Assembly: GCF_000014265.1 (NCBI RefSeq)
Contig: NC_008312.1
Location: forward strand, 2,040,001 to 2,072,000
Source of the DNA: Trichodesmium erythraeum IMS101
GTDB lineage: Bacteria; Cyanobacteriota; Cyanobacteriia; Cyanobacteriales; Microcoleaceae
DNA length: 32,000 nt
Direction: 5' to 3'
The position numbers were made by a program, and so were the translations under genes. Shown in pieces: positions 11,992-32,000 of this stretch. The notes beneath the pieces were generated by a model. That model did not search any database, had not been told where the DNA came from, and worked only from the letters and a program-made list of their open reading frames with translations. The number at the start of each line of letters is the position of its first letter. Within the stretch, counting starts at the first letter, position 1.

Positions 11992-12113
11992 TTTTTTGAC
12001 TTCAGTTAATTTAATTTCATAGAATAAGGAAGATAAAATATAGCACTACTATTGCAATACTATTTATAAAACTTATAAAGCGTAGACTTAAGTAAATCCC
12101 TTTTGTAGAGTAT

Positions 12114-12659
12114 TTACATCAAATCAGCCTCTTTCAAAGTTGTACCATCTTTATCTTTTTGAGACAATTTTACCTCAATTCCATTTATTGGCCAACTAAT
12201 CCCAATTTCTGAATCATTCCACAGAATTGAACGCTCATATTCAGGTGCATAATAATCAGTAGTTTTATACAAAACATCCGCAGTTTCAGACACTACAAAA
12301 AAACCATGAGCAAAACCAGGAGGCACCCAAAGTTGTCGTTTATTTTCTGCACTTAAAAGATAGCCTACCCACTTACCAAAATTAGGAGAATTTTTCCGAA
12401 TGTCTACAGCAACATCAAATATTTCTCCCAAAACTACTCTTAATAATTTGCCTTGAGCTTGTTGAATTTGATAATGCAAACCTCGAAGTACACCTTGGCT
12501 AGAACGAGAATGATTATCTTGCACAAATTCGAGATTTACTCCTGTTTTTTCGGAAAAATTACGTTGATTAAAACTCTCCATAAAAAAGCCACGTTCGTCT
12601 CCAAAAACTTTTGGCTCTATTAATAATACTTCAGGAATTTCTGTTTGAATTACATTCAT
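12114..12659 (-). CDS. rfbC: dTDP-4-dehydrorhamnose 3,5-epimerase
   Basis: 181-aa ORF. Cupin-fold RmlC hallmarks FGDERGFF, RGLHYQ, QGKLLRVV.GEIFDVAVDIR and VPPGFAHGF. Confidence 0.92.
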   Translation of the reverse strand: MNVIQTEIPEVLLIEPKVFGDERGFFMESFNQRNFSEKTGVNLEFVQDNHSRSSQGVLRGLHYQIQQAQGKLLRVVLGEIFDVAVDIRKNSPNFGKWVGYLLSAENKRQLWVPPGFAHGFFVVSETADVLYKTTDYYAPEYERSILWNDSEIGISWPINGIEVKLSQKDKDGTTLKEADLM

Positions 12660-12679
12660 TTTTTTGACCTCATTTTTTA

Positions 12680-15600: not shown

Positions 15601-16359
15601 AAAAAATTGAGAAATTGAGAGAAAAAAAGAGAACCAAATCTGCTAATAATACTTCAATATATTCAAAATATATCTCAGACTCATTAAATTACTGGTTAGC
15701 TTTGATTCTACATCAGAAACCCCACTTTTTTTCAAAGTAAATTTTATTCTATCTAGGGATAAATAAGAAATAATTAAAGTGTTACTTTGGTTGATAATGA
15801 ATAGGAAAAATTAACTGAAACTTCCTTTAAAATTATTACCAAAAAGTTGAGGAATTTAGAATCAAGAGGGATAGATAAAATAAAATATAAAGAAGCTAAA
15901 AACTGTTATTAAATAACTGTTAACCGTTAACTGTTAACTAATAACTGTTACTACCTCTTTTTTTTCCAAGCTTATAACTATCCTATCCATAAATTAAAGA
16001 CTAATTTATCTAGATTAAAAAATTGAGAAATTGAGAGAAAAAAAGAGAACCAAATCTGCTAATAATACTTCAATATATTCAAAATATATCTCAGACTCAT
16101 TAAATTACTGGTTAGCTTTGATTCTACATCAGAAACCCCACTTTTTTTCAAAGTAAATTTTATTCTATCTAGGGATAAATAAGAAATAATTAAAGTGTTA
16201 CTTTGGTTGATAATGAATAGGAAAAATTAACTGAAACTTCCTTTAAAATTATTACCAAAAAGTTGAGGAATTTAGAATCAAGAGGGATAGATAAAATCAA
16301 ATATAAAGAAGCTAAAAACTGTTAGTAAATAACTGTTAACCGTTAACTTATAACTGTTA
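12680..16359. repeat. Tandem array of 9 units (388-420 bp). Each unit is a decayed copy of the last ~90 codons of the methyltransferase gene plus its downstream spacer
   Basis: The landmark caag(c/t)tt recurs at 12719, 13139, 13555, 13971, 14359, 14747, 15135, 15551, 15967 and 16376. The last occurrence is inside the real CDS. Periods are 420, 416, 416, 388, 388, 388, 416, 416 and 409. The units align colinearly with 16360..~16630. Confidence 0.95.
13501..13540. repeat. Heptamer microsatellite (AACTGTT)n, STRR-like; one tract per unit of the 12.7-16.4 kb array (representative copy)
   Basis: Sequence ataactgttaactgttaactgttaaatcataactgttact. Units of 388 bp have a shorter tract (ataactgttact), which accounts for the 28-bp (4 x 7) length difference from 416-bp units. 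A similar tract, ctgataactgataactaataactgtt, lies at about 8491-8516. Confidence 0.85.
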
Positions 16360-17220
16360 TTACCTCTTTTGCCCCCAAGCTTCCAATTCTCCTATCCATA
16401 AATTAAAGACCAATTTATCTAGATTAAAAAATTTAGAAATTGAGAGGAAAAAAGAGAACAAAACCTGCTGATAATACTTCAATCTATTCAAAATATATCC
16501 CAGGCTCATTAAATTACTAGTCGGCTTTGATTCTACATCAGAAAATCCACTTTTTTCCAAAGCAAATTTTATCGTATCTAGGGAGAAATAAGTCAAGTGT
16601 TCTGTTGGTTTATAATGATACCAAAAAGACCCTAATAATCTATGCCAAAACCCTCCCACATTTGGAGTAGTAATAAAAATCCATCCTCCAGGTTTCAAAA
16701 GTTGATAAGCTGCTGTTAATTGAGCAATAGGATCTGTCGTATGTTCAATCATATCTTGCAACATAATCAAATCAAAAGAATTAGGTTCAAAACTATGATT
16801 AAACAAATCCCCTTGATGTACAGATAAGCCCCTACTTTTAGCAAAATTTACTGCATATTCTGAGACTTCTAAACCTTGAGGTTTATCCCATCCTAAATCT
16901 TTTGCTTGCTCCAAACAATCACCTAAAGCACAACCCACATCTAATAATAAACCTTGACCAAAAAGTTTTTTCTCTGCTTTTAATAAACGTTTACGAAAAG
17001 TCTGATTATTAATTTTCATCCCTTGGAAATAATTAGAATATCCTCCTTTAGGGAAATCGTTATTATAATAACTTTCCTGATAAATAGTAGTAGGATTTAC
17101 TGGCGGATTATTATCCCATACCATACCACATTTAGAGCATTTTGCTAATAGATAGTTATCCCCTGCTTTATAATAGTTAAACTTGTTTGTATGACATAAG
17201 GGGCAATAATTTTTTTGCAT
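16360..17220 (-). CDS. Class I SAM-dependent methyltransferase with an N-terminal Cys4 zinc-ribbon
   Basis: 286-aa ORF. CPLCHTNKF...CSKCGMVW zinc-ribbon. Motif I LLDVGCALGDC, plus LIMLQDMIEH and LKPGGWIFITTPN. Its last ~270 nt are the master copy of the downstream tandem array. Confidence 0.85.
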   Translation of the reverse strand: MQKNYCPLCHTNKFNYYKAGDNYLLAKCSKCGMVWDNNPPVNPTTIYQESYYNNDFPKGGYSNYFQGMKINNQTFRKRLLKAEKKLFGQGLLLDVGCALGDCLEQAKDLGWDKPQGLEVSEYAVNFAKSRGLSVHQGDLFNHSFEPNSFDLIMLQDMIEHTTDPIAQLTAAYQLLKPGGWIFITTPNVGGFWHRLLGSFWYHYKPTEHLTYFSLDTIKFALEKSGFSDVESKPTSNLMSLGYILNRLKYYQQVLFSFFLSISKFFNLDKLVFNLWIGELEAWGQKR

Positions 17221-17446
17221 AATATTTGGATTAAAATTACTTATATTATGATATTGGGGATAGCTATATTAAAATTTTAACCTCAATATTACCAGTGAAC
17301 GTAATCCATCTTCACATATCAAGTGATTTTTAGAACACTAAGTATTTTCAGCCACTTTTCAGAGACTTCTGCTATTAGCCCTGAAGTTCATTTATGGGAA
17401 ATTTTGGTGGTTATTATTATCTTATCTGTTTAAATTAAAATACTAG

Positions 17447-19189
17447 TCAAGACTTTTCTACCCTGACATTAACTTCATTGTTTAATTTAACAAATTCTTG
17501 TTTATTAGGGTTATAAACCCAAGCTTTAATAACAGTTTCTCCTACAGGTAAAGATTTCGCTGAAAATTTTACTTTCCATCTGGCTCTACTATAAAGTTTT
17601 GACTTCATAACTTTAGCAATATCATAACTCTCTAAGTTAACAATAGCATTAGCAAAAAAATCTTGATTATTACCAGAAGAAAGTAACACTAAGTTAGGTT
17701 GTTCTTTTCCATCAGGTTGAATTGCCCAACCTCCCAAATTTAGAGTTTCTTCACCTTTAATAATTAGAGGTTTTGCAGTTGTTTGAGGATGATCTAAATA
17801 ACCATAATTTTGTTTTGGTTGTTTGATAAATTGTAGATTTTGAGGAAATTCTCGCCATCCGAGTTTTGCCATAATTTCTGCACCTCGTCTGACTAGCCAA
17901 GTTTTGCCATTCATTAACACTAAACAACTATCTGGAGATGTTTTTATAAATTCTGAATCTTCTAAATAGTTAATTATTTCTAGACATTCTTTCCGACTCT
18001 CAATATAGGGAAAACTTAATTTAATATTCCTCACAACATAGAGGGAGTTTATGAGCATAATTCCTGTGATTGCAACAGCTAAAATTTTATATATTAATAA
18101 ATATTTTTGTTGCTTTTGTATAAACAAAGCCAAGAGATAAACTAAAGAGATAATTAATAATATTGATGTGGTTGTATATCGGGAAGAAGTCATAGCATTT
18201 TCCACCCCATATTCTGCTCTACCTACAGAAATAGATAGAGCAGAAATTATAGAAAATGTACCTATTGTTAACCAAGGAATAGTAGGAGGAAAAAAAGTTA
18301 GTTTATACAAAGGTTTCTTGAGAAAGTAATATGTAAAAAATAGGAAACTAGAGAATAATATTAATCCTGTTAAAATTGCAGGTATGGGAAGTCTAACTAG
18401 AGGTAAACCTATAACGGCTAAAAAATAATTTATTATCAAAAATGGTTTTTCTGTAAATAAAAATGGTTTTGGTTCGCGAATTGGATTGAAGTTAATTGCG
18501 TAGATAATACATGAAACTACAAACAGTAAGCTCCAGATCACTAGTCTAGTAATTTTTTGTTTAGCTTTCCCTTCTATAGACAATATTGACGGAATTAAAA
18601 CTAGCCAAGAAAATAATCCTTGTATTAATGTAAAACTTCCGATAAAACAAAATATTGCTGCTAGAAATATTCTTCTTTTTGCCGATATATTCTCTAAGAC
18701 ATGAATCAAATATACCGCCATTATTAAACATAAGTTTGTGAGAAACCAAAATAGAGTAAATCCCCATAACCAGTTCTGATGTTGTACTAGGGAAAATAAA
18801 AATAGACAGCTTAAAATATTTGCTATATTTATAATATTTTGATTTTGATTATGAAAGTTAATTTGGGCTATTTTACAAACAGCAAAAAATGTGATGATGA
18901 CAAAAATTACACTACAAATTATTTCAGCTTGAGTGTTCCATTTAGTGGCAAAAGCTAAGGCAGTAATGATTAATTTTGGTATTAATATTCTGTGATGTCC
19001 GTGTACTGTGAAAAAGTCAAAAAATGTGGCGTTTCCTTCAGCAACTTTCTCAAATATAGGGGTTAATCTCCATTGGTCCCAGTAGGGAACATTGACACTA
19101 AAATTAGCGAGAAACCAAAGGAGTAATAAGACTGGAAAAATATATAGGGTTACTAATAATATTCTGGTTCGGGAAAATATTTTTCGCAT
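17447..19189 (-). CDS. Polytopic integral membrane protein with a C-terminal soluble domain; putative GT-C-type glycosyltransferase; paralog of 2045..3895
   Basis: 580-aa ORF. Multiple transmembrane segments, then a hydrophilic C-terminal domain (GGWAIQPDGKEQPNLVLLSSGNNQDFFANAIVNLESYDIAKVM...IKAWVYNPNKQEFVKLNN). That domain is colinear with the tail of the 616-aa ORF. Confidence 0.6.
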   Translation of the reverse strand: MRKIFSRTRILLVTLYIFPVLLLLWFLANFSVNVPYWDQWRLTPIFEKVAEGNATFFDFFTVHGHHRILIPKLIITALAFATKWNTQAEIICSVIFVIITFFAVCKIAQINFHNQNQNIINIANILSCLFLFSLVQHQNWLWGFTLFWFLTNLCLIMAVYLIHVLENISAKRRIFLAAIFCFIGSFTLIQGLFSWLVLIPSILSIEGKAKQKITRLVIWSLLFVVSCIIYAINFNPIREPKPFLFTEKPFLIINYFLAVIGLPLVRLPIPAILTGLILFSSFLFFTYYFLKKPLYKLTFFPPTIPWLTIGTFSIISALSISVGRAEYGVENAMTSSRYTTTSILLIISLVYLLALFIQKQQKYLLIYKILAVAITGIMLINSLYVVRNIKLSFPYIESRKECLEIINYLEDSEFIKTSPDSCLVLMNGKTWLVRRGAEIMAKLGWREFPQNLQFIKQPKQNYGYLDHPQTTAKPLIIKGEETLNLGGWAIQPDGKEQPNLVLLSSGNNQDFFANAIVNLESYDIAKVMKSKLYSRARWKVKFSAKSLPVGETVIKAWVYNPNKQEFVKLNNEVNVRVEKS

Positions 19190-20637: not shown

Positions 20638-21978
20638 TTATAAAGGACAAGGTAAAGGATTAATAATGCTACTGATCTGGTTAGCAATTGTTAAAAGCTT
20701 TTGATCATTTCCATAGTTTCCTACTAATTGAACACCAATAGGGAGCCCCTTAGAGGATAAAGTTAATGGGATAACAACCACAGGATAACCAGTTAAATTA
20801 AATAAGGTTGTATAAGCACCGATCGCTTGAAAATATGGATAACTTTTTCCCTCTATATCTATATCATTACCAAAAGGAAAACGAGGAAAAGCAGGAAAAG
20901 GAACAACTGGAATTAACCAAATATCAACCTTCTGAAAAAATAGGGCTAATTGATTCATAATCATTTGACGTTTTTCAAGAGCAATCATATAGTTTTTCTG
21001 CTCATCTTTTGGCGTTGAAGGATTAAATTCATAGCTTAAAATATTTCTATAAATCTCCCAAACTTCATCCATATTGATTTGAGAAAGATTTCTATATTCT
21101 AGCTGATAATCTAACTCAGATAAAACATCAATAACTGTTTTAATAGCTTTTTTAGTTTCAGAACAACAAGGAATATTACCGAAACCATAAGACCATACAA
21201 AGCCATAAGAATTTAAACTAGAAAATGAGTTAATTTTTTCATTTAATCCTTGATGATTACTTTCTTTTATGACCGAAAAACATAACATTAAATCTTCAAC
21301 TGATCGTCCCAAATATCCGACATTTTGACAATGATTAATTGTTAAAGGATTACCCGGTAATTCAGGAATATGACCATAGGTTGAAACCCTCTTTTCTGTT
21401 GCTTTAATGGTATAAATACCACAAAAATGAGCCGGAATTCGAAGCGACCCTCCCAAATCACTTCCTATGTCAAAAACCGATAATTGAGCAGCGATCGCAG
21501 ACCCACCTCCTCCTGTACTTCCCCCTGGTGTATAGTCTAAATTCCAAGGGTTATTTGTGCGACCAAATAAAGGACTATTGGTTTGAAAATCTCCGGTTAA
21601 TTTTGGGGTATTAGTCTTACCTAAAATAATAGCGCCGGCTGCTTTTAATTTTGCTACAACCGTTGCATCTTTTCGGGGAATATAGTTAGCTAAAGGTTCA
21701 TAACTACAAGTTGTTCTCAGCCCTTTCGTTTCTAAACTGTCTTTAATAGTAATAGGAACTCCGTGTAAAGGTCCAAAACATTTTCCTTTTGCTAAGGCAC
21801 GATCTGCTTTTTTAACCTGTTGATCAACTTGTTCTGGATCGAGAGTAATAATAGCATTTAATTGAGGGTTATAGTAAGAAATACGTTGAAGATAAGCTGT
21901 CACTACTTCTTCACAAGAAACCAGGCGTTCACGAATTATTTTTGCTAAGGTATGGGCAGATAAAGATGTTAATTTCAC
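20638..21978 (-). CDS. Amidase signature (AS) family amidohydrolase
   Basis: 446-aa ORF with a GTG start. AS motifs GVPITIKDS (catalytic Lys region) and GGSTGGGGSAIAAQLSVFDIGSDLGGSLRIPA (Ser-cisSer region). Confidence 0.85.
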   Translation of the reverse strand: MKLTSLSAHTLAKIIRERLVSCEEVVTAYLQRISYYNPQLNAIITLDPEQVDQQVKKADRALAKGKCFGPLHGVPITIKDSLETKGLRTTCSYEPLANYIPRKDATVVAKLKAAGAIILGKTNTPKLTGDFQTNSPLFGRTNNPWNLDYTPGGSTGGGGSAIAAQLSVFDIGSDLGGSLRIPAHFCGIYTIKATEKRVSTYGHIPELPGNPLTINHCQNVGYLGRSVEDLMLCFSVIKESNHQGLNEKINSFSSLNSYGFVWSYGFGNIPCCSETKKAIKTVIDVLSELDYQLEYRNLSQINMDEVWEIYRNILSYEFNPSTPKDEQKNYMIALEKRQMIMNQLALFFQKVDIWLIPVVPFPAFPRFPFGNDIDIEGKSYPYFQAIGAYTTLFNLTGYPVVVIPLTLSSKGLPIGVQLVGNYGNDQKLLTIANQISSIINPLPCPL

Positions 21979-22597
21979 TTTAATTAATCATCATTGGTAT
22001 GTCTATCAGTTGTAAAATAAAATAGGGGATTAAAAACTATAGATTTGAATGCCAATACAATTCTAATTTTTAGTCATTATTCTATCTAGCTTTAAGTGCA
22101 TCTTTAAAAACTTCCAAAGTAATTCTATCTGTCATCTTTGTACATATATATCTACTCTATATTTATCACTTACTCCTTCCTAAATTGTCAGTATTCAGCG
22201 ATAAGCTATGAGTTATGAACTCATTATATTGGAAGGAGGAATTAGTCTCTAAGGAAAATTAAAAAGTTATGTTTAGACAGCATAACCTTTGTATCCCATT
22301 CCGTATTTTAGGAAAGGTAAGGTAAGAACATGTAATTGGTCATTAGGTAACCTTAGTAGTTGTTTGGCAGTTATTCAAAAGCGCTCAAGCAGAATGAATG
22401 CAGTGCTCAATGATTTAAGGTAAATTAGTAGTTAATCTAAATTATATTCAGTCACCTAAATCAGTCTACAATGGCTCAAATGCTAGATATATCAAGGAAC
22501 AAGTTGATTAAAAGTAAAACCTTTACTTTATCTGTATTTGATGTTATTTTTAATGTTTTATTTTGCTAAATTACCCATATAAAAAAAAGAACTCAAA

Positions 22598-22633
22598 CCT
22601 GGACTTAAACATTATACTTGCAGCAAGTCCAGG
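22598..22633 (-). terminator. Candidate bidirectional intrinsic terminator downstream of the HlyD-family gene
   Basis: Perfect 9-bp stem cctggactt / aagtccagg with an 18-nt loop. Minus-strand downstream context is tttgagttctttttttt. Plus-strand downstream context is atttttct. Lies about 150 nt past the stop codon at 22784. Confidence 0.45.
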
Positions 22634-22783
22634 ATTTTTCTCATCGGGTTAAGTATATTTTCTGAGCCAATATAGCAATAATCAAAGAACTTTACAATAT
22701 AGACTAGTAGTTAATCTTAAACTTTTGAAATATTTGCCACTATTGCCTATTTCCTGCTATAGCTGACTGCTAAAAGCTGATAG

Positions 22784-24964
22784 TTAATTAACATTAGTCA
22801 AACTCTTAAACTTGCCAGTAAACCTATTAAAGAACAACTCTAAAACAGTCCGCTTACCAACATTAATATTAGAGTTAATTGCCATACCATTCTGTAAGCC
22901 AATTTCCAGATCATTCTCATTATCCAGAACAAATGTTTGGCGTTCTAAATCAATTGTAGTTTTAAAAGAAAAATAAGGTCTTCCTGCTTCTTGGTCTGGT
23001 GGCATAGCATCATCACTAATAGAAATAACCTCCCCAGTCACAGTTCCAAATTCATTAGCAGGTAAAGCTTCAACTTGTACTTCTACAGGTACACAGTCTA
23101 CATCACTTAAACCTAGTTTTTCCCTATTTTCTTTTAACTCCGGACAAGCACATTTTTTACCTGCTTCACATGCAATAACCTCTCCACCAGCTAACTCTTC
23201 GTCGTGATAAGGTTCTAATTTTTTGCGTTTATCATTTAAAGCTTTTAACACCAGAGCAACATCTTTATTCTGAATATAAACTACTGCTTTCAAACCTTCA
23301 TCATCATCCAATACTGTCAGTAAAGGTTGAGTTTGTTGTGCCTCATAAGAAGCATCCTCACATCTTTCTGGTTGAATATCTCCTGGCTTCAAAACATCAT
23401 TAATAACATATTGACAGATAGGGTCTGTCTTAATATCTAAAGAAGATTCTTCTTTAGTTGTAGGTTGTAAATCAAAAATCACCCCAGAAACTGGTGACTT
23501 TAAAACTTGATTATCACGAGCTTCTTCTAACTTTTCTATTTGAGCATTAACTTCAGTCAGTCGCTTGTTATTTTCTAATTGTAAGCGAGTAAATTGAGAA
23601 TCTATTCTGGAAATTTCTCTACCTTCATTTTCAGCAATTCTGGCATAAAGTTCCCTTGCCCAAGCATCTCTTGTATTTTTTAATTGTTCTCTAGTTCTAT
23701 TAATAGATACATTTAAACGTTGTTGTTCTAACCTAATACGTTGCACTTCTGCTTGACGCGCCTTAACCTCTCCTTCTCGGGCATTAATATCAGCTTTTCT
23801 AGAATTAATTTCACCCTCGCGAGTATTAACTTCTCCCTCTAAATTATTAAGGTCCGCCCTACGAGAATTTACTTCTCCTTCTCTAGCATTAATATCAGCT
23901 AACCGAGAATTAATTTCTCCCAATCTAATATTTATTTCTCCTGCCCTTGACTGTATTTGGTCTTGTTGTCTTAAGAGCTCACTTTCCCCACGAAATACTT
24001 CTTGTTCTTGACGTTTTTTTTGCAGTTCAGCCATAGCTCCTTCTTCTACCAAAGGAGATATTTGCTCTAGAATTCCTTGGTTAGAATCTAATACTTGTCC
24101 TGATTTATCTAATTGCCCCTTTGCTAGCTTTAATTGTTCTTGAGAATACTTTAATTGTGCCTGAGTATTGTTCAGTTGTTCTCTGGCAAATTTCAGTTGT
24201 TTTTCTGTATTATTTAATTGTTCATAAGCATAAGTTAGCTTTTGCTTACTATTATTTAATTGTTGTTTAGCAAATTCTAATTGTTGTCTAGAATATTGCA
24301 ATTGATCTTGAGCAACCCTTAATTGTTCTGTTGCTGCTTCTTCCTGTTTTTCTGCTTGTTGAAGTTGTTTTTGTAGTTCTCGAACTTGTAATTCTACAGC
24401 ACCTACACGAGAATTATATTCAGCCTTGTAATTGATATATAATCCTTGTAAACTTCTGTCAATATTCACAAAACGACCTCTGTTTAAATAAAGTTCATCA
24501 ATTAAAGCGCCATAGGCTTGGTTTTCTGATAGTCTAGTTTGTCTTTCTTGAGCAAGTTTTCGCAAATCTGAAGGTAAATCTCTAGGAACTTTACCATTTA
24601 ATACTTCCTCATAAAATTTATTTTCTCTTTTGAGAGTTTCTTTTAACTTAATTGCCGAACCTAAATCTGCACTGGGAGCAGTAGGGCTAAAAGTTAATAA
24701 TGGTTGATTTTTTTCTACCCGATCACCATTTTCTACATGAAGTCTAACTACATTTCCACTGGTAGGAGCTTGGACATCTATAGAACCATCTTTAAGTTCT
24801 AATTTACCTGTTGCCGGTACAGCTTGGTCTATCTCGGCAAAGTAAGCCCAGATAATAGCTGAACTAGTCATAATCATAATCATCCAGAGAAATAGCCGAG
24901 ATAATATAGCTGGTTTCTCTAAAATTATTGGTTGTTCTTTTAATGATATTGATTTATCTTGCAT
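22784..24964 (-). CDS. HlyD-family membrane fusion / periplasmic adaptor protein with a greatly extended coiled-coil
   Basis: 726-aa ORF. N-terminal TM helix LFLWMIMIMTSSAIIWAYF. Lipoyl-like half motifs GKLELKDGSIDVQAPTSGNVVRLHVENGDRVEKNQPLL and LKSPVSGVIFDL. About 380 aa of heptad-rich helix lies between them. Confidence 0.85.
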   Translation of the reverse strand: MQDKSISLKEQPIILEKPAILSRLFLWMIMIMTSSAIIWAYFAEIDQAVPATGKLELKDGSIDVQAPTSGNVVRLHVENGDRVEKNQPLLTFSPTAPSADLGSAIKLKETLKRENKFYEEVLNGKVPRDLPSDLRKLAQERQTRLSENQAYGALIDELYLNRGRFVNIDRSLQGLYINYKAEYNSRVGAVELQVRELQKQLQQAEKQEEAATEQLRVAQDQLQYSRQQLEFAKQQLNNSKQKLTYAYEQLNNTEKQLKFAREQLNNTQAQLKYSQEQLKLAKGQLDKSGQVLDSNQGILEQISPLVEEGAMAELQKKRQEQEVFRGESELLRQQDQIQSRAGEINIRLGEINSRLADINAREGEVNSRRADLNNLEGEVNTREGEINSRKADINAREGEVKARQAEVQRIRLEQQRLNVSINRTREQLKNTRDAWARELYARIAENEGREISRIDSQFTRLQLENNKRLTEVNAQIEKLEEARDNQVLKSPVSGVIFDLQPTTKEESSLDIKTDPICQYVINDVLKPGDIQPERCEDASYEAQQTQPLLTVLDDDEGLKAVVYIQNKDVALVLKALNDKRKKLEPYHDEELAGGEVIACEAGKKCACPELKENREKLGLSDVDCVPVEVQVEALPANEFGTVTGEVISISDDAMPPDQEAGRPYFSFKTTIDLERQTFVLDNENDLEIGLQNGMAINSNINVGKRTVLELFFNRFTGKFKSLTNVN

Positions 24965-25158
24965 TTTTTTTCTCTTTTAATATATTAGGAAAAAGGAGTA
25001 AGCAGGAGGTATTTAGGAATAGTCAGGCAAGGAAAAGTCTTTTAGAAAAAAGTCGGAGGTTAGTCGTCATTAACTATTAGTGCTCCAGCAAAACTATTTA
25101 TCTATTTAAATTATTTGTGCTTTTTAAAAGGCAAAGAATTCAGCTTGTATAAATAAAT

Positions 25159-25176
25159 ATGCAATTAATATTGCAT
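25159..25176. promoter_or_regulatory. Palindrome ATGCAAT-TAAT-ATTGCAT in the 309-bp ABC-HlyD spacer (candidate operator)
   Basis: 7-bp perfect inverted arms around a 4-bp centre. It lies about 195 nt upstream of the HlyD-family start codon, within an unusually long intra-module spacer. Confidence 0.25.
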
Positions 25177-25273
25177 GACAACTTCAGTAGCTTCTTTTAC
25201 CCCTCCTAATTTTTAATAATTTAGGAATTGTGCTGAAATTTTCTTTCTCCTTACTCCTTCTTCCTCCTCCAAA

Positions 25274-28273
25274 TTATTGTTGAGATTCTTGTTGTTGATA
25301 AAGGCAGAAATAACGCCCTTTTACTCCCATTAATTCATCATGGGTTCCCTGCTCTACCACCGAACCTTTATCCATCATTATGATAGTATTAGCATTTTTT
25401 ACTGTTGTTAAACGGTGAGTAATAAAAAACACTGTTGTATTGGTAAAAGCCTCAGCTAAATTCTCTCCAACCTGACGTTCAGAACTGTAATCTAAAGCGC
25501 TAGTTGCTTCATCTAATATCAACAATTTGGGATTTTGTAGAACTGTCCGAGCAATTGCAATTCTTTGTCTTTGACCCCCTGACAAAGAAGCTCCTCTTTC
25601 TCCCACCATTGTGTTATAACCACTAGGCAAATTCATAATAAAATCATGAGCAACTGCTATCTTAGCGGCTCGAATAATTTCATCAGTCGTTGCATCTGGA
25701 TTTGTCAAAGCAATATTATCTTGAACAGTACCATTAAACAGAAGAGTATCTTGTAAAACCACCCCAATTTGACGGCGTAAAGAGTATAGTTCTACCTTTT
25801 GAATATCATATCCATCAATGAAAATTCGACCAGAAAGTGGAGGATATAAGCGTTGCAATAACTTCATTAGTGTACTTTTTCCGGAACCACTCAACCCCAC
25901 AATACCCACAAAATGACCAGCAGGAAATTCCAGATTTATATTTGCTAATTGTAAAGGTCCGCTTTGAGTAAACCTGAAGCAAAGTTCCTCAAATTTGACA
26001 CTGCCATTAATTGGTGGCATATCAATATTATTCCGGTCTTCCTCATCTACTTCCGCTTCAGTATCTAAAACATCTCTTAATCGTTCAATTGACATTCCTA
26101 CTTCTTGGAAACTTTGCCAAACACTAACAAAACGGAGCAATGAACCTGTCACATTACCAGCAATAATTCGGAAAGCAATTAATCCCCCTACAGATAACTG
26201 ACCATCAATAACTAAATAAGCGCCAACCCATAAAAGCGCTAATCCTGAAAGTTTATTTAAAAATGTACTAATAGAACTAGAAGTAGTTTGAGTAAGAACA
26301 GTATTAAAACTAGCAGTCATAAATCTAGTATAACGGGATGACCATTCCCAACGAGACTTCAATTCTAAATTTTGCGCCTTAACAGTTTGCACACCATTTA
26401 GTACTTCTACCAAGTATGACTGAGAATCTGCATAACGTTCTGCCTTTTTCCGTAGTAACCTTCTGACAATAGGAGAGTTAATTAAAATAATACCAGCAAA
26501 GAAAGGTACTCCAGCCAAAGCAACCGCCGTCATTAATGGGTTGAGAGTCAACATTACAGCAACATAAATTACTGAGAAGACCGCATCTAAAACCACTGTT
26601 AAGGCTGTGCCTGTCAGAAAATTCCGAATATTAGCTAATTCTCCAATTCTACCTACCAAATCACCTACCCGGCGATTATCAAAATAAGTGAGTGGTAGAC
26701 GAAGTAAATGGTCAATTACCTCTGAGCTAAGTTTGACATCTATACGGTTAGTAGTATCTACAAATAAGAAAGTCCGTAGACCTCCCAACAAAGCCTCAAA
26801 TAGAGCCACTAATAACATCAAGATTCCCAGAACATCCAAAGCCTCAATATTACGTTGCCCCATCACTTTATCGATGATAATCATCGTCATTAGAGGGTTG
26901 ACCAAGCCAAATACCTGTACAAAAAATGAGGAAATCAAAACCTCAATAAATACTGTGCGATGTTCCATCAAAGAAGGAACAAACCACCAAAAACTAAACT
27001 GTTCCTTCTGCTCAGTTTTTGGTGCTTCTAGTAGTAGAATTTGTCCTGACTCTCCCCAAATTTCCTGGAACTCACCTGGTTTGAGACGACTTAATCCTGA
27101 TTCTGGACTCCCAACGACAATTTCTTTTTCTGTAATACTATAAAGTATACCAAAACTATTTTGCCATTCAACTAGAGCTGGTGCTCTGAGTCGAGGCACT
27201 GCTGATGCCGACACTTGTGCTAGTTGACCCGTTAATCCCATCATCTGAGCGATCGCCCCACAAGCCTGCATAGACACTCTACCTGCTGTGCGGATCTGAT
27301 TATCCAATACTCGACGAATTACGTCCCGGCGAAACCTGAGGCCAAAATGTTTGGCTAGCATCTGAAAGCAAGCTAAAGGAGCTGCTATTTGTCCTTTAGC
27401 TCGAAAAATTGGGTACTTTTTTGATGAAGTATCTTGAGCCACAGTAGGTTCTGATGGACGTGCTGGTGCTAGGGGAACCTTAGATAAATCCAAGGGTACC
27501 AGTTGACTAGTTTCCGCCCAATTTTCTATTGTTTGTTCCTCATCTTGTTGTTCAGGTAATCCGATAATTCTTGCACCTCTTGGCCCTTCTATTTTAATAG
27601 ACCTACCTGTTCCAGCTCTATCCAAAACTACTTGAGAACCTGAAGGAAAATCTCCTACTACCCCACTACTAACTAGCCATATTTTTTTTTTGTCGAGGAT
27701 CGAAGCTATTTCTATGGTTTTGTGGTCTCCTTTCGGTAGATTTACTACTACAGTATTTTGGACAACATTTTGAGCTAGTTGTTTGAGGTTATTATTTACT
27801 TCAGCTCTTCTATCAAATTCTTGGCTTAGTAGTTCAAATACTTCACTTATTGCTGGACTTTCGAGAAAGACTGCTCCAAATTCTGGTTCTACTTCTAGTA
27901 TTGCCAAAAAATCTGCTGCTGGTAAAGTAATAGCGATTAAGTCTGTGGAAGCGAGTGCTGTTTCACAAGGCATCCCTCGTAGCAACCCGGCCCAACCTAG
28001 AATTTCTCCTGGTCCTGCTAATTGCAAACTGATGTGACGTTGCGATCGCTCCTCATAACCTAATACTCGTGCCTGACCCTGATAAATAATTGCTATCTGG
28101 TTTGGCATTTTTTCCCTTTCAAATAGTGGTTGGCCAGCACGGTAACCTAGAAGTTGACACTTTTCCACTAATTGAGTTCTCAGAGCATTTTCTGAAAGTT
28201 TGTTAAATGGTGGCTTATTTGCCAGAAATTCTTGTACTTGTACTCTTGATATTGTCGAAGAAGGAGTAGCCAT
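25274..28273 (-). CDS. ABC exporter of the HlyB / bacteriocin-exporter class: cNMP-binding-like domain + C39-like domain + 6-TM domain + NBD
   Basis: 999-aa ORF. aa ~20-135: cyclic-nucleotide-binding fold (IYQGQARVL...GPGEILGWAGLLRGMPCETALA). aa ~290-415: C39-peptidase-like domain (AAPLACFQMLAKHFG). TMD at aa ~430-720. NBD with Walker A GLSGSGKST, signature LSGGQRQRIAIAR, Walker B LLILDEATSALD and H-loop ITHRL. Confidence 0.9.
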   Translation of the reverse strand: MATPSSTISRVQVQEFLANKPPFNKLSENALRTQLVEKCQLLGYRAGQPLFEREKMPNQIAIIYQGQARVLGYEERSQRHISLQLAGPGEILGWAGLLRGMPCETALASTDLIAITLPAADFLAILEVEPEFGAVFLESPAISEVFELLSQEFDRRAEVNNNLKQLAQNVVQNTVVVNLPKGDHKTIEIASILDKKKIWLVSSGVVGDFPSGSQVVLDRAGTGRSIKIEGPRGARIIGLPEQQDEEQTIENWAETSQLVPLDLSKVPLAPARPSEPTVAQDTSSKKYPIFRAKGQIAAPLACFQMLAKHFGLRFRRDVIRRVLDNQIRTAGRVSMQACGAIAQMMGLTGQLAQVSASAVPRLRAPALVEWQNSFGILYSITEKEIVVGSPESGLSRLKPGEFQEIWGESGQILLLEAPKTEQKEQFSFWWFVPSLMEHRTVFIEVLISSFFVQVFGLVNPLMTMIIIDKVMGQRNIEALDVLGILMLLVALFEALLGGLRTFLFVDTTNRIDVKLSSEVIDHLLRLPLTYFDNRRVGDLVGRIGELANIRNFLTGTALTVVLDAVFSVIYVAVMLTLNPLMTAVALAGVPFFAGIILINSPIVRRLLRKKAERYADSQSYLVEVLNGVQTVKAQNLELKSRWEWSSRYTRFMTASFNTVLTQTTSSSISTFLNKLSGLALLWVGAYLVIDGQLSVGGLIAFRIIAGNVTGSLLRFVSVWQSFQEVGMSIERLRDVLDTEAEVDEEDRNNIDMPPINGSVKFEELCFRFTQSGPLQLANINLEFPAGHFVGIVGLSGSGKSTLMKLLQRLYPPLSGRIFIDGYDIQKVELYSLRRQIGVVLQDTLLFNGTVQDNIALTNPDATTDEIIRAAKIAVAHDFIMNLPSGYNTMVGERGASLSGGQRQRIAIARTVLQNPKLLILDEATSALDYSSERQVGENLAEAFTNTTVFFITHRLTTVKNANTIIMMDKGSVVEQGTHDELMGVKGRYFCLYQQQESQQ

Positions 28274-28439
28274 TTAGTTTATGTTATTTCACTATAGTTG
28301 GGAGATAACTATTGATTTTCCCTAATTTTTATATATTTGGGTATTTATATGATTCACTAGAAAATTGGGTCTGCTAAACTTTTTGAGGGACTTTTGCTAA
28401 GATTTCTGTGCCATAGAATATGCTATGTTCTTTAATTAT

Positions 28440-28800
28440 TTGCAAGGGGGCACGCCTCCTTCGGAGGAGACGCCTCTTGCAGAGGAGCTTTGCTTTAGGC
28501 ATATCTAGGAATTTGTTTTCTTACCCTTTACCCCTGCCGTCCAAAATCTGAATTTTGGAGAGGTATATTTCCGGCCACGGGTATGAAACCCATTTCATGT
28601 CGCGTTTGATCTGCATAGCGATAAGGAAAATAAAACTAAAATTATAAACGGACGCGGAGGAACCCGCAACTTTCCCTTACTTCCCTTTCCTGGAGGGGGT
28701 GTGAGTGGGTTGGGGTAGATGCAGCATCCGAATTCAGGGTAAGCTTTGGGTCAGCAAAACGTCAACCCACCGAATATCTATAGCTCAGGATAAATTTCAC
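28440..28800. other. G+C-rich, hairpin-dense non-coding island (candidate structured RNA, leader or retroelement relic)
   Basis: My hand count gives about 47% G+C over 28441-28800, visibly above the flanking AT-rich intergenic DNA. Two tandem 18-nt hairpin modules: acgcctccttcggaggag and acgcctcttgcagaggag (28452-28487). Other stems: ccaaaat/attttgg (28541-28558), atgaaa/tttcat (28583-28598), gcgg/ccgc (28654-28667). Long-range 8-bp pairing gtgggttg (28705-28712) with caacccac (28763-28770). Confidence 0.5.
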
Positions 28801-28828
28801 CATCTAATACCCGAAGAGGATCTCAACC

Positions 28829-29584
28829 CTAAACTTTTACATCTGATACATCTGAACCTAATGGCTTCAAAAGCCCAATTTTTCCTATTTGTTCTCGTAT
28901 CCAATTTTCTAATAATTCGTCCATTAGACGCCGACGCATTGAATCATCAAGCTGTGCTGGGATAAATTTTTCTAACCTAATAATTACTGTCCATTCTGTT
29001 AATGGACGTGGAGCCCAGATTTGCCCTGGTTGACTTACTGATAAAATTTTGCTTATAGAAGGATGTGGTTGAATTAGGGGGACAGGGCCTAACAACCCTC
29101 CTGTTCGCCCTTCTGGGCCTTCTGAATATTCACGAGCAACTTCGGCAAAAGTTTGCTCTTCTTCTACTATCCGAAAGTATAGTTCATGGGCTAAACCAGG
29201 ATTTTTTGTTCGAATTAGAGAATATACTACTTGGTCTAAGCTACTCTTGCGGGTGAGAAAATATCTTTCTACTTGATTTTTCCAAGTTTGTTGTTTAAAT
29301 TTTTCTAGCAATACTGGCCTAATTGCCATTTCTTCTAGTTGTTCTTGGGTCATGTTTTGGCTTTTTAGCCATGCTTGTTTAGCTTCGGGGTTATTTAATT
29401 GGTATTGAGTCTCAAATTTTTCTAAGGCTGTTGTTTTTTCCTTTTCTGTGCAAGTCAAGCTAGCGATCGCTTCGTCAATTATTACCCCTCGTAAAAAATG
29501 AGGCATTAACTGATAACGTTGTAATAGCGATGGGATATCTTGGGCTTGCAATAATTTATCACCTATTTGAAATAATCCTGTCAT
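28829..29584 (-). CDS. Parvulin (PpiC-type) peptidyl-prolyl isomerase-like protein, no signal peptide
   Basis: 251-aa ORF. The C-terminal half matches the parvulin pattern F.E.A..YSE.P....GG.LG........P.......L..G.I..P: TFAEVAREYSEGPEGRTGGLLGPVPLIQPHPSISKILSVSQPGQIWAP. The N-terminal ~130 aa are helical and chaperone-like. Confidence 0.7.
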   Translation of the reverse strand: MTGLFQIGDKLLQAQDIPSLLQRYQLMPHFLRGVIIDEAIASLTCTEKEKTTALEKFETQYQLNNPEAKQAWLKSQNMTQEQLEEMAIRPVLLEKFKQQTWKNQVERYFLTRKSSLDQVVYSLIRTKNPGLAHELYFRIVEEEQTFAEVAREYSEGPEGRTGGLLGPVPLIQPHPSISKILSVSQPGQIWAPRPLTEWTVIIRLEKFIPAQLDDSMRRRLMDELLENWIREQIGKIGLLKPLGSDVSDVKV

Positions 29585-31941
29585 TTTTTATCTCTCCAAC
29601 TAACTTGCACTATTCTTTTTAATCTAGTTCTCTGTAAAAGGTAGTGCCAAATAGTTTACTGATTCATTTTTTTTTATTGCTTTATGTTTATTTATTAGAA
29701 AATAGATAATTTACACCTATGAGCTCACATATTACAGTTTTTAATTATTCTCTAGAGTCTATTCTAACTCTTGTAAATAATAGCTTTTAGCTCTACTGGT
29801 TATAAATAATGGTAATCAGAATCTACTCTTTCTGGATCATAACATTCTCTTACTACTCAAGCATAAAAACTAAATTGTAGGACATGGCCGACTTTTTTTG
29901 TTTCTTTATTTATTTATGATGATTAATAATCTTTTTTAAGAGGATATTTGTAAATCAACACTTAAACACTAATTCCAGCCATTGCCATGTTTTCTGTCAT
30001 ATATCTGTAAATTTTAAAAAAATGAGCTTAAGAAAATGTATAATTAATTTTGTCAAGCTTAAAATATTAAATCCTGGTGTAGTCAACCGACACATCTAAA
30101 ATTATGTAATTAGCTTATCTAAAGTTGAGGAACGAAAACCAAGCAAAATAAGACACATGTTGAGTTTGAGTTCATTTTATCAAAGCCTACATTTTTTAAT
30201 TGCCTTAGTCCATTAGGGTATACTAGATGTAGATTCGCCCATTAAACTTAATAATCTCTGTGATTCATCATAACTTGCCTATATGTAAGCTGTAAGCAGA
30301 CCTAATATATTTTTTTTAGTATACCTTCTAAGAGTTCTCCTATTTGCTTTAAATAACCATAATCATCTAAAATTTTAGTCTTTAGAGGCAATCTTTTGTC
30401 AAACTTTTCCTGATTATAACAACATAATTTTTGTTTGTTTATAATGCTAGGCTTAACTTAATATATTATTTATAAGTATGAATAATTAATTCCAGCAATT
30501 CTTGTTATTTTAGTAAAGTTTCTATTTATCTTTCTTTTAACTCCTCACGTTTTTTTGAACACACACCATCAGTATTTATACTAACCAAAACTCTAGTATT
30601 AAGAATAATTTTATACAATGACAAAACACTAAAATTGAGGCTTATTTACTGAGCAATGTTTTTTAGACTGTAATTGTAAAACTTTAGGATCAGATATTAC
30701 TGTTTTGCCTAGAAATTATAATATCAGGCCTCAAGAAGGAAAACGGAAATTGGAATAAAAAATAAATCTTGAGGAAAACAAGTTTATATTTCAACAATTA
30801 CCCCTTATTGAAAAAAAAGAGGACTTAAGCCTTACAGCATATTCGGTAAGTAATGTGCAACAACTAACAGGGTAAATATTTTTTACAAGTTTACCATTCG
30901 TAATTCCCATATTCCCTAACCCCTACTCCTATGACCCTAAAAAAATCAACATAACTACCTAACATAACAACCCAGGAGTCGTAAATTCAATATATATTTA
31001 CATTTTAGGAGTCGCTACTAATATTGTATGCGACGTTCGTAAAAAAGATAAACAATTCACACCCTCAGTGGATGCTAATGATGAAAAAAATTATTCTACC
31101 TGTGTTAATTACTTAATCGTTTAAGTTTCAAATTAAAAATAGCATTAAATAGCATTTATTTTTAACCCTTGGTGTAAGAATAGTTTAATAACTCATAGCT
31201 AATATTTGATAGCTGATGGTTAAATGCTAACAAATCATACTTATTTAAGAAAGTTGTAATTTAATAGTTCAATTAAGAATAATGTTATAGGAAAAAAAGT
31301 TTACTTTACCACAATTAGTAGTTTTTTTAATCAGTAGTCCCATGAATGTGGTGATATTTATTTATAAGTAGACCCCTTTCATTGTCAATAGTTTAACTGC
31401 AAAAATCATTACTTGTGCATCACTACCCTTTAATCAATGAGTTATAGTTATACATCCATCTCTGCCCACCTTTCAAGCTATGCTTTATAAACATCTTTAT
31501 TAACATAAAACTTGACAAAACAGAGAAGTTATGTGCTTTTCATTAAATAGATATTTTAGGAGAATAGACTTACTTAATTAGAGGCTTTTCTCACCTATAG
31601 CTAGGTCTATTACATCCAATGTCCCGACCCATGCTAAAGACACGGGGAGAGAAGTTTTTGATAAATTATATAAAACAGTGAGATGTTTAATTCAATTTCT
31701 CCTCATATAACTTTCAGCATTTCCGTGCTGGAATGCTCCCCAAACAACTATCAGCTCAAGTCAAAACTATTCGTGATCAAGCATTGTAATTTGATAAATT
31801 TCCTAACACTTTTTTGTAGTCTTATAGTGTTGGGAAAAATGTGTGTTTTTCTTGCATAAAAATGTATAAAAACAATATAAAAATTGTGGATTTTGTTGTT
31901 CCCTATTTCTGATTTACTAATTGATTCAATAAAAAGCAAAA

Positions 31942-32000
31942 ATGCGAATATTATTTACAATTCCTCATTTTTTCAACCCAGAAGGTAGCGGGCAACATGG
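31942..32000 (+). CDS. 5' end of an ORF running off the window (MRILFTIPHFFNPEGSGQHG...)
   Basis: ATG at 31942, open to the window edge. Only 19 codons are visible, so no product call is possible. Confidence 0.3.
   Translation, partial: MRILFTIPHFFNPEGSGQH

Follow-up and report, generated by a model that had tools for sequence, protein, structure and literature searches.

A HlyB-like type I export module with a parvulin-like partner in Trichodesmium erythraeum IMS101, likely serving large surface proteins

The locus and its genes

What is exported by a gene cluster that joins an ABC transporter and a HlyD-family adaptor to a protein resembling a folding factor, and has neither a substrate gene nor a TolC gene beside it? 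In the 32-kb stretch of Trichodesmium erythraeum IMS101 DNA analyzed here (the window), three intact genes follow each other on the minus strand in the order parvulin-like, ABC and HlyD:

28829..29584, minus strand: parvulin-like gene, 251 aa (GenBank ABG50666.1; ORF and Pfam Rotamase)
28274..28828, minus strand: spacer between the parvulin-like and ABC genes, 555 bp
25274..28273, minus strand: ABC exporter gene, 999 aa (ABG50665.1; ORF and Pfam)
24965..25273, minus strand: spacer between the ABC and HlyD genes, 309 bp
22784..24964, minus strand: HlyD-family membrane fusion protein gene, 726 aa (ABG50664.1; Pfam HlyD_3, 41.5 bits, cut-off 22.2)

A previous sequence-only reading had given the same coordinates (29584-28829, 28273-25274 and 24964-22784), strand and spacer lengths, all of which are exact, and its domain assignments, including the cNMP and parvulin folds, are borne out by Pfam bit scores above the curated cut-offs against which they were judged. 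The triad is under purifying selection, with dN/dS values of 0.10-0.18 (0.11-0.12 for the parvulin-like gene and 0.11-0.18 for the HlyD gene).

The reported lack of cargo-related genes near the module can be extended to the whole window: the RTX nonapeptide is absent from every frame of the 32 kb, the only match to the GG-leader pattern lies in a 15-codon ORF, and none of the nine scanned ORFs of at least 90 aa outside the module genes matches an outer-membrane-factor family in Pfam. This supports the earlier proposal that the cargo is encoded elsewhere, which then also holds for TolC. Cargo and TolC genes that lie away from the exporter genes are normal for type I systems.

The ABC exporter

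Four domains are recognized in the ABC protein:

27893-28144, minus strand: cNMP-like fold, aa 44-127 (Pfam cNMP_binding, 39.4 bits, cut-off 27.5)
27026-27376, minus strand: degenerate C39-like domain, aa 300-416 (Pfam Peptidase_C39, 37.0 bits, cut-off 22)
26150-26947, minus strand: transmembrane domain, aa 443-708 (Pfam ABC_membrane, 159 bits)
25499-25948, minus strand: nucleotide-binding domain, aa 776-925 (Pfam ABC_tran, 121 bits)

The top NCBIfam model is TIGR01846 (type_I_sec_HlyB) with 725.2 bits, 0.35 below its cut-off of 725.55, and the closest relative of solved structure is Escherichia coli HlyB with 563 bits (the peptidase-containing transporter PCAT1, 356-358 bits), which supports the view that ABC and membrane fusion protein form a type I-like exporter. 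In the C39-like domain, the catalytic Cys, His and Asp are changed to Ala, Ser and Ser, and the oxyanion Gln is replaced as well. The catalytic Cys is missing in 76 of 76 orthologues and in all 19 diverse family representatives, and the earlier term "C39-like" holds for a domain whose whole catalytic triad is absent throughout the family. The N-terminal fold aligns with the cNMP-binding domains of CRP, PKA and channels, and its phosphate-binding cassette carries Trp at the ribose-contacting Glu of GE(L)A(L) and Cys at the phosphate-contacting Arg of PR(S/A)A.

The parvulin-like protein

This protein matches Pfam Rotamase with 30.7 bits (cut-off 21.7; 6.5e-7). It has no signal peptide, and to this extent the proposed cytoplasmic location is supported. 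In the AlphaFold model (pLDDT 83), the parvulin domain has a helical chaperone module on its N-terminal side and a helix on its C-terminal side, and Foldseek matches the model best to PrsA and SurA (E 2e-9 to 3e-7). The likeness to this family lies in the predicted helical chaperone module that is wrapped around the parvulin domain. However, PrsA and SurA have export signals and work outside the cytoplasm, whereas the protein discussed here has no such signal and also lacks the parvulin catalytic residues. S122, G156 and T199 occupy the catalytic His, Cys(Asp) and His positions, and S122 and G156 are invariant at the first two of these even in relatives of 25-34% identity. As the catalytic residues are missing, a chaperone is favored over an isomerase, and a role as holdase for the cargo is plausible.

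The adaptor

Residues 16-114 and 628-711 of the HlyD-family protein align to E. coli HlyD of entry 7SGR and correspond to the N-terminal transmembrane/lipoyl part and the C-terminal beta-barrel, while the middle is an expanded coiled coil of about 500 residues. The match to TIGR01843 (1.2e-34) stays under the model cut-off, and the GenBank name "Chromosome segregation ATPase-like protein" of ABG50664.1 is a misnomer. The coiled coil contains a repeat tract:

23735-23941, minus strand: heptad (21-nt) tandem repeats

Conservation and genomic setting

The order parvulin-like, ABC, HlyD is kept in 80 of 80 related Oscillatoriales loci wherever the contig reaches, and it is also found in Synechococcus lacustris, on two picocyanobacterial-type contigs and at two further metagenome loci, so that the expected linkage of the three genes holds among close relatives and in distant picocyanobacteria. 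The chaperone is not universally linked, as a parvulin-like gene is absent within 10 kb of the ABC gene in Synechocystis PCC 6803, the only counterpart that has been studied by experiment, and the ABC gene of Aphanothece stands alone beside a Wzy_C gene.

The module is surrounded, in the window as in relatives, by GT41, GT2, GT4, epimerase and rhamnose-pathway genes. Two further features lie in its neighborhood:

17447..19189, minus strand: Tery_1349, multi-pass membrane protein of 580 aa with a C-terminal beta-sandwich (100% identity match)
30317..30486, minus strand: decayed glycosyltransferase relic, disrupted by a frameshift and by in-frame stops (blastn; tblastn E 4e-5)

Tery_1349 carries the UniRef name "YfhO family" (100% identity) and has no Pfam match; its model (pLDDT 80) weakly resembles the GT-C enzymes AftB and STT3 in fold, and it is probably a GT-C/YfhO-like glycosyltransferase. 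In 57 of the 80 related loci its counterpart follows the HlyD gene immediately, as the conserved fourth gene; in IMS101 the two are kept apart by an amidase gene (20638-21978) that is lineage-specific. The relic is the 3' end of a multi-domain glycosyltransferase gene (GT4+GT2+GT41) that is intact in 73/80 related loci and in most relatives lies directly 5' of the parvulin-like gene. Candidates for cargo adjoin the module elsewhere: the locus of one relative encodes a giant Big_9/Cadherin protein, a TolC-like OEP, Rotamase, ABC, HlyD and a giant TPR/GT41 protein, and in another relative a HemolysinCabind protein is next to the module.

Known counterparts

As in the module, the C39-like domain of E. 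coli HlyB/HlyD/TolC is degenerate, the HlyD-family adaptor is adjacent and TolC is unlinked, and HlyB, the best match of solved structure, aligns over the membrane and ATPase domains. In contrast to HlyB, the IMS101 ABC protein has about 290 extra N-terminal residues with the cNMP-like fold, and the His that is kept in the C39-like domain of HlyB is Ser. The IMS101 adaptor is about 250 residues longer than E. coli HlyD, which has 478 aa, and the module adds a dedicated cytoplasmic chaperone-like partner, while its operon includes no cargo gene.

Over residues 14-995, the ABC protein shares 50% identity with the Synechocystis "HlyB family" protein BAA18265, which has the same architecture of cNMP, C39-like and ABC parts and likewise carries Ala at the catalytic C39 Cys. 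From its name, its length and the HlyD-type gene after it, we take BAA18265 to be Sll1180. Sequence comparison then suggests that the IMS101 ABC and HlyD genes are the counterparts of Sll1180 and Sll1181. In both organisms the HlyD-type gene is directly downstream of the ABC gene; the adaptors differ in length (583 aa in Synechocystis, 726 aa in IMS101; 27% identical), and Synechocystis has a TolC-like gene 8 kb away, whereas the IMS101 window has none. For Sll1180/Sll1181 together with the TolC homologue Slr1270, export of the S-layer protein Sll1951 has been reported (Agarwal et al. 2018, as cited in PMC11594277 and PMC11171426).

HetC of Nostoc PCC 7120, a group II long-type transporter, has the same three-part N-terminus and ABC architecture. 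It is an active peptidase that keeps its catalytic Cys347 and His420, which are Ala and Ser in the IMS101 protein, and its cNMP-like domain is indispensable in vivo and is stabilized by ppGpp, GTP and GDP, not by cAMP or 2-oxoglutarate (PMC10986499).

The module as a whole has already been described across cyanobacteria, and in this respect the finding is for the most part ordinary. Wang, Fewer and Sivonen (2011) found a rotamase, a "long-type" ABC protein with CAP_ED and C39 and a HlyD protein as the "group I" cluster in nearly every cyanobacterial genome, with one such cluster in T. erythraeum IMS101 and only 0.35 precursors per cluster (PMC3140520). The gene content ("SurA" rotamase, long-type ABC of CAP_ED + C39 + ABC, HlyD) is identical, modification enzymes are likewise absent and precursor genes few or absent nearby, and we see no structural difference. 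The long-type transporter is said to go back to Dirix et al. 2004, reference 20 of Wang et al. As judged from the sequences, the C39 triad is absent family-wide, and the "bacteriocin" functional label of this cluster is probably wrong; the group I "SurA" protein, lacking signal peptide and catalytic residues, is neither periplasmic nor an isomerase. The earlier statement that function, ligand and cargo had not been worked out was therefore too strong, given the published cluster (PMC3140520), the export of Sll1951 reported in PMC11594277 and PMC11171426, and the GenBank name that already identifies the architecture. What is added here is the loss of the C39 triad and of the cNMP Glu and Arg, the lack of catalytic residues and of a signal peptide in the parvulin-like protein, the kept gene order and the glycosyltransferase setting.

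Proposed function and alternatives

We consider it likely that the module is the T. erythraeum copy of the cyanobacteria-wide "group I/long-type" HlyB-like type I exporter for large surface proteins, probably glycoproteins. The cargo class is suggested by analogy with relatives alone, because the window holds no cargo, TolC or RTX gene. In the mechanism that we infer, including the cargo class, the role of the chaperone, the ligand and why the adaptor is long, an inner-membrane machine made of ABC dimers and the HlyD-family adaptor would dock onto a TolC-type channel encoded elsewhere and export large uncleaved S-layer, RTX or adhesin proteins, probably glycosylated and also encoded elsewhere, in one step. 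The parvulin-like protein may act as a cytoplasmic, catalytically dead PrsA/SurA-like chaperone that keeps the cargo secretion-competent or passes it to the C39-like domain, which without its protease triad could serve as cytoplasmic docking site for unfolded cargo, as in HlyB. The cNMP-like fold at the N-terminus might have a regulatory role and bind a different ligand (ppGpp/GTP, if HetC is a guide), or its role might be structural only, and the adaptor, with its very long coiled coil, could reach across the thick envelope that filamentous cyanobacteria have.

A bacteriocin exporter that cleaves a double-glycine leader and pumps out a small peptide would agree with the Peptidase_C39 match, the GenBank name "ABC bacteriocin/lantibiotic exporters", the class of Wang et al. 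2011 (PMC3140520) and the paralogue HetC with its active C39 domain (PMC10986499). However, the catalytic residues and the oxyanion Gln are replaced here and in the 76 orthologues and 19 representatives, the 32 kb contain no GG-leader gene beyond the 15-codon match, group I clusters average 0.35 precursors (PMC3140520), and HlyB is favored both by the models (725 bits for TIGR01846, 373 for the bacteriocin model TIGR01193) and by the structures (563 bits, PCAT1 356). This makes such an exporter very improbable, and export of GG-peptides is largely refuted by the missing C39 triad. Secretion switched by cAMP or cGMP on the N-terminal domain, as the ligand gating of the sequence-only reading might be understood, is a slightly less remote option, but still an unlikely one: the cNMP_binding score (39.4 bits, cut-off 27.5), the alignment with CRP, PKA and channel domains and the in vivo requirement for the HetC domain (PMC10986499) speak for it, but the canonical Glu and Arg are Trp and Cys, and the HetC domain was stabilized by ppGpp, GTP and GDP and did not bind cAMP (PMC10986499). 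The exporter is probably not cAMP-gated.

The surroundings could also suggest that the module is the export arm of a polysaccharide-biosynthesis cluster and carries a glycan or glycolipid, as glycosyltransferase, methyltransferase, epimerase and rhamnose-pathway genes lie around it here and in relatives, a probable GT-C protein is the conserved fourth gene, and the Aphanothece ABC gene adjoins a Wzy_C gene. Yet it is established that HlyB-type transporters carrying a C39-like domain, and the HlyD adaptors of type I systems, export proteins; a chaperone of the PrsA/SurA type suggests that the client is a polypeptide, and GT41 enzymes are protein O-glycosyltransferases. Furthermore, giant adhesin or RTX genes adjoin the module in relatives, and protein export by the Synechocystis counterpart is reported (PMC11594277, PMC11171426). 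We therefore think that glycan export is quite unlikely, and favor the type I exporter for large surface proteins.

Intergenic regions

Two hairpins were noted outside the coding regions:

28667-28648, minus strand: terminator-like hairpin in the spacer between the parvulin-like and ABC genes
22581..22633, minus strand: putative intrinsic terminator downstream of the HlyD gene (9-bp stem, 18-nt loop, T-rich tail; read by eye)

The 555-bp spacer had been called structured, which does not hold: its folding z-score is -0.16, and 44 of 100 dinucleotide shuffles fold at least as well. It is poorly conserved, with lengths of about 10-615 bp in relatives, and in close relatives only 50-215 nt beside the ABC start are conserved. 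The previously proposed terminator after the HlyD gene was found again by eye as a hairpin with T-run about 150-200 nt past the stop (stem 22633-22625/22606-22598, tail 22597-22581), and it was missed by the automatic scan because of its 18-nt loop. The spacer between the ABC and HlyD genes, which is about 50-70 bp long in most Microcoleus loci, is bracketed in IMS101 by a 19-nt inverted repeat (24987-25005/25247-25265).

Organization and annotation of the exporter module

The module is best read as a type I exporter of the HlyB type, whose cargo would be large surface proteins or glycoproteins and which would use an unlinked TolC. The triad is real, intact and under selection, and its three minus-strand genes are separated by spacers of 555 bp (parvulin-like to ABC gene) and 309 bp (ABC to HlyD gene). 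ORF coordinates, protein lengths and spacers are exactly those of the sequence-only reading. Pfam backs all of the domains named there (Rotamase; cNMP_binding, Peptidase_C39, ABC_membrane and ABC_tran; HlyD_3), and the candidate terminator placed beyond the HlyD gene is recovered as a hairpin with a T-run 150-200 nt past the stop. Four proteins of the region match T. erythraeum IMS101 entries exactly.

Genes of the module and the adjoining amidase gene, with GenBank names
29584-28829, minus strand: parvulin-like ORF, 251 aa; ABG50666, "conserved hypothetical protein"
28273-25274, minus strand: ABC exporter ORF, 999 aa; ABG50665, [quoted passage not shown]
24964-22784, minus strand: HlyD-family adaptor ORF, 726 aa; ABG50664, "Chromosome segregation ATPase-like protein"
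20638-21978, minus strand: amidase gene between the HlyD gene and Tery_1349; ABG50663, "Amidase"

The name of ABG50665 implies that the genome annotators, in an annotation that we take to date from 2006, had already recognized the domain fusion that was flagged from the sequence, and the adaptor was mis-named as a chromosome segregation ATPase because of its coiled coil.

The ABC exporter and its two N-terminal domains

Pfam domains of the 999-aa ABC protein
aa 44-127: cNMP_binding
aa 300-416: Peptidase_C39
aa 443-708: ABC_membrane
aa 776-925: ABC_tran

The ABC protein is a half-transporter with a six-helix ABC_membrane domain (2.3e-46) and a C-terminal ABC_tran ATPase (6.4e-35). Its top NCBIfam model is TIGR01846 type_I_sec_HlyB, with a score of 725.2 bits that falls 0.35 bits short of the NCBI curated cut-off of 725.55. 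Several traits of an HlyB-type exporter are present, namely the membrane and ATPase domains, a C39-like domain without the catalytic cysteine and an adjoining HlyD-family gene. The competing label is that of a bacteriocin exporter with a C39 peptidase (TIGR01193), and the Pfam match and the GenBank name both point in that direction. In the alignment with PCAT1, however, the oxyanion Gln and the catalytic Cys are each replaced by Ala and the His and Asp each by Ser, while the remaining cysteine corresponds to the non-catalytic one, the second of the DCGxxC motif. The catalytic Cys is also missing from all 76 orthologues from related loci and from all 19 diverse full-length representatives in a MAFFT alignment, in which a single true peptidase-type sequence, serving as control, carries it. 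Among solved structures, HlyB is matched with 563 bits (residues 395-995) and PCAT1 with 356-358 bits. Together with the replaced residues this speaks against a bacteriocin exporter, for which GG-leader genes were not found nearby either, and the sequence comparison argues for an HlyB-like domain that would have a docking role in its degenerate form.

The N-terminal domain (cNMP_binding, PF00027) scores 39.4 bits against a Pfam cut-off of 27.5 and aligns to solved cNMP-binding domains, and its presence had been taken to mean gating by a cyclic nucleotide. In its phosphate-binding cassette, the canonical G-E-L-A-L reads G-W-A-G-L and the canonical P-R-S-A reads P-C-E-T, so that neither the Glu of the ribose contact nor the Arg of the cyclic-phosphate contact is kept; the "P-C-E" motif is found again in most family representatives. 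In HetC of Nostoc, a long-type transporter likewise composed of cNMP, C39 and ABC parts, the cNMP-like domain is essential; ppGpp, GTP and GDP bind to it, whereas cAMP and 2-oxoglutarate do not stabilize it (PMC10986499). Because the cassette Glu and Arg are lost, and in view of the HetC binding data, gating of the ABC exporter by cAMP or cGMP is unlikely, and the domain would rather be regulatory with a ligand other than a cyclic nucleotide. The likeness to HetC does not extend to the C39 domain, since the HetC peptidase is active through Cys347 and His420 (PMC10986499), where the protein studied here has Ala and Ser. The descriptions "cyclic nucleotide-regulated" and "bacteriocin exporter" are both at odds with the residues present.

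The parvulin-like protein and the adaptor

The Rotamase domain (PF00639) of the parvulin-like protein scores 30.7 bits, with a cut-off of 21.7. Its AlphaFold model (pLDDT 83) has its best matches in the foldases PrsA and SurA (E 2e-9 to 3e-7), and in Foldseek the parvulin domain superposes on SurA domain II, PpiC and Pin1 with an rmsd of 1.4-2.6 Å over 102-110 aligned columns. When the protein is aligned to SurA P2 and to hand-entered sequences of Pin1 and Par10, S122 falls at the first catalytic His, G156 at the Cys/Asp position and T199 at the second His; the place of S122 was set by eye, as this part of Pin1 and Par10 stayed unaligned in MAFFT. The position of T199 is M or F in close relatives, and S122 and G156 do not vary, not even in members of the family from distant loci with just 25-34% identity. 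Since the N-terminus is not hydrophobic, the model resembles PrsA and SurA and the catalytic residues are replaced, the protein is best described as a putative cytoplasmic, isomerase-dead and chaperone-like protein, which would be a partner of the exporter. The published name "SurA" for the rotamase protein of such clusters consequently misleads on both location and activity. To our knowledge, no dedicated chaperone for type I secretion has been described, and we know only of the general chaperone SecB, which serves HasA.

The adaptor matches the HlyD_3 and biotin-lipoyl families of Pfam, and its top NCBIfam model is TIGR01843 type_I_hlyD (1.2e-34, under the cut-off). Both ends of the adaptor can be aligned to E. 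coli HlyD, over 100 residues at the N-terminus and 85 at the C-terminus. The approximately 500 residues between them form a coiled coil that includes seven 21-nt (heptad) repeats, in register, at 23735-23941, and adaptor length differs among lineages.

Length of the HlyD-family adaptor
Trichodesmium, Okeania and Dapis: 726 aa
Microcoleus: about 668 aa
Synechocystis: 583 aa
Picocyanobacterial-type loci: 415-449 aa
Two short metagenome loci: 320-329 aa

A long adaptor hairpin would span a thick envelope. One family representative, P0166 (750 aa), has a cNMP-like N-terminal region that is apparently joined straight to an HlyD-type adaptor and not to an ABC protein, which may be a genuine fusion or else an artefact of assembly or gene calling.

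Conservation of the triad and relation to described systems

With one genome scanned per species, relatives of the parvulin-like protein are encoded in at least 572 stretches. The best 80 of these are all from Oscillatoriales-type genomes and, wherever the contig reaches, all have the parvulin-like, ABC and HlyD genes in this order on a single strand. For all three genes, dN/dS is 0.10-0.18 in comparisons with Dapis, Okeania and a Trichodesmium MAG. Among seven ABC representatives of deeper lineages, five have the parvulin-like gene immediately 5' of the ABC gene (Synechococcus lacustris, the metagenome loci L085 and L087, an AT-rich contig and a picocyanobacterial metagenome contig), and Synechocystis and Aphanothece have none beside it. 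The linkage whose loss had been named as fatal to the idea of a module is kept, though not universally.

The architecture is already known, both from GenBank annotation and from the literature since at least 2011, when Wang, Fewer and Sivonen distinguished seven groups of C39-ABC loci in cyanobacteria (PMC3140520). [quoted passage not shown] The triad agrees with this definition, as it consists of rotamase, CAP_ED/C39/ABC and HlyD genes without modification enzymes. The PteB/EbfG biofilm system of Synechococcus elongatus was considered as the closest system and is ruled out, as it belongs to group III and to the short type.

A probable counterpart is found in Synechocystis PCC 6803. According to the passages of PMC11594277 and PMC11171426 that cite Agarwal et al. 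2018, the S-layer protein Sll1951 of this strain is reportedly exported by the ABC protein Sll1180, the adaptor Sll1181 and the TolC homologue Slr1270. A search with residues 1-430 against cluster representatives led to a 1011-aa protein that is 50% identical to the Trichodesmium ABC protein over residues 14-995, and whose 90% cluster includes the PCC 6803 "HlyB family" protein BAA18265. The gene of the latter is taken to be sll1180, going by name, length and neighbor and not by locus tag. It has the same Pfam architecture, the 583-aa HlyD-type gene directly after it and a TolC-like OEP gene 8 kb off, but unlike the Trichodesmium locus it has no parvulin-like gene within 10 kb. At the level of sequence, the ABC protein shares full-length similarity and architecture with the presumed Sll1180, and the pairing with an HlyD-type gene is the same. 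In literature searches, neither Tery_1349 nor Tery_1351-1353 was matched as a locus tag, and nothing relevant came up on a link between GT41 and type I secretion. As the module had been described and annotated before, and as functional data exist for two relatives (HetC and the Synechocystis system), the statement that its function, ligand and cargo had yet to be worked out does not stand; of the sequence-only reading, the structural description is right, whereas this statement is not and cyclic-nucleotide gating is unlikely. The discovery value is accordingly small, and the worth of the re-examination is corrective, as it concerns the exporter labels and the mis-annotated adaptor in GenBank.

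Glycosyltransferase flanks and candidate cargo

Further features of the window
~30317-30486, minus strand: relic of the C-terminal end of a GT4+GT2+GT41 gene, with a frameshift and in-frame stops, in the 2.4-kb ORF-free stretch 29585-32000
17447-19189, minus strand: Tery_1349, 580-aa multi-pass membrane protein with a C-terminal beta-sandwich, next gene downstream of the amidase gene
16360-17220: methyltransferase
12114-12659: RmlC
9484-10365: RmlD
8695-9450: thioesterase
2045-3895, minus strand: 616-aa multi-pass membrane protein with a soluble C-terminal domain and no Pfam match
749-1705: GT2

Clustering of all ORFs from the 80 related loci showed that 73 of the loci have a multi-domain glycosyltransferase of about 1270 aa (GT4, GT2 and GT41) immediately before the parvulin-like gene and 57 a Tery_1349 homologue right behind the HlyD gene, many of the latter continuing with a GT2 and an NAD-dependent epimerase gene. 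The conservation of these glycosyltransferase-bearing flanks across the 80 loci is a new observation of this analysis. Trichodesmium and its closest relatives (L001 and L004) appear to have lost the upstream multi-glycosyltransferase gene. The amidase gene occupies its position only in Trichodesmium and is missing there in all 80 related loci, which suggests a lineage-specific insertion into an otherwise conserved row of genes. In loci L017-L080, the Tery_1349 homologues are found at about 16.1-18.1 kb.

Tery_1349 has no Pfam match up to E = 1 and is named "YfhO family" in UniRef. The membrane domain of its model (pLDDT 80) has its best matches in the GT-C enzymes AftB and STT3, but these are weak (TM 0.3-0.36, E 0.01-0.1), so that its assignment as a GT-C enzyme stays tentative. 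The 616-aa protein has a build like that of Tery_1349 and may be a paralogous GT-C-like enzyme in this glycan gene region. Both were tried as cargo and ruled out, as they are multi-pass membrane proteins. Gene decay is known for the T. erythraeum genome, and the low coding density of 1-17220, with ORF-free stretches at 3896-8694, 10366-12113 and 12660-16359 between the sugar-pathway genes, is consistent with it.

The sequence-only reading had seen no GG-leader, RTX or outer-membrane-factor gene nearby, which motif and Pfam scans bear out for the 32-kb window. RTX repeats are absent in any frame; the only GG-leader match in six frames lies in a 15-codon ORF and is not credible, ORFs of at least 20 aa in 21900-32000 contain no candidate, and none of the nine other ORFs of at least 90 aa scanned belongs to an outer-membrane-factor family. 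Rfam and tRNA scans of the window were likewise without matches. Neither a TolC-type partner nor a cargo with a C-terminal signal is thus present in the 32 kb, while relatives have OEP, giant adhesin or RTX genes alongside. In L085 (Ga0247841_10000147, 1-19051), a giant Big_9/Cadherin_5/DUF5801 protein (>3778 aa) is followed by a TolC-like OEP, Rotamase, the cNMP/C39-like ABC protein, HlyD and a giant TPR/GT41 protein (>3385 aa). Here the type I locus is complete, a candidate cargo included, and it is a good model for cargo and glycosylation. In L087, a 944-aa HemolysinCabind protein adjoins the pair, and in S. lacustris GT41 and TPR genes lie upstream of the triad.

Because protein-type glycosyltransferases repeatedly accompany the module, we infer that the cargo would be a glycoprotein. 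A more far-reaching proposal is that a dead, signal-less PrsA/SurA-like chaperone is dedicated to the type I system and, with the GT41 neighbors that the module has from Oscillatoriales to picocyanobacteria, would serve to glycosylate, hold and export surface glycoproteins under gating by a ppGpp-like alarmone through the cNMP-like domain. We consider this combination rather improbable. If the link between chaperone and glycosyltransferases is functional, it would explain how abundant cyanobacteria such as Trichodesmium and picocyanobacteria build glycoprotein surface layers, and it would add a new accessory part to an otherwise minimal type I secretion machine.

Intergenic spacers

The 555-bp spacer, which had been called structured, has the same folding energy as its shuffles (z = -0.16) and is poorly conserved in sequence, with conservation confined to the stretch beside the ABC start. 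Its length in relatives ranges from about 10 to 615 bp, and in picocyanobacteria the parvulin-like and ABC genes overlap. On the minus strand, 160 nt past the parvulin-like gene, a terminator-like hairpin is present at 28648-28667, and the otherwise AT-rich spacer also holds an imperfect, GC-rich palindrome at ~28440-28490. Because of these two elements, the parvulin-like gene of Trichodesmium may be transcribed apart from the ABC gene.

The spacer between the ABC and HlyD genes is 309 bp long here as compared to ~50-70 bp in most Microcoleus loci. A 19-nt inverted repeat (24987-25005 and 25247-25265, 89% complementary), of which the window holds no second copy, frames nearly all of it and may be the trace of a small inserted element.
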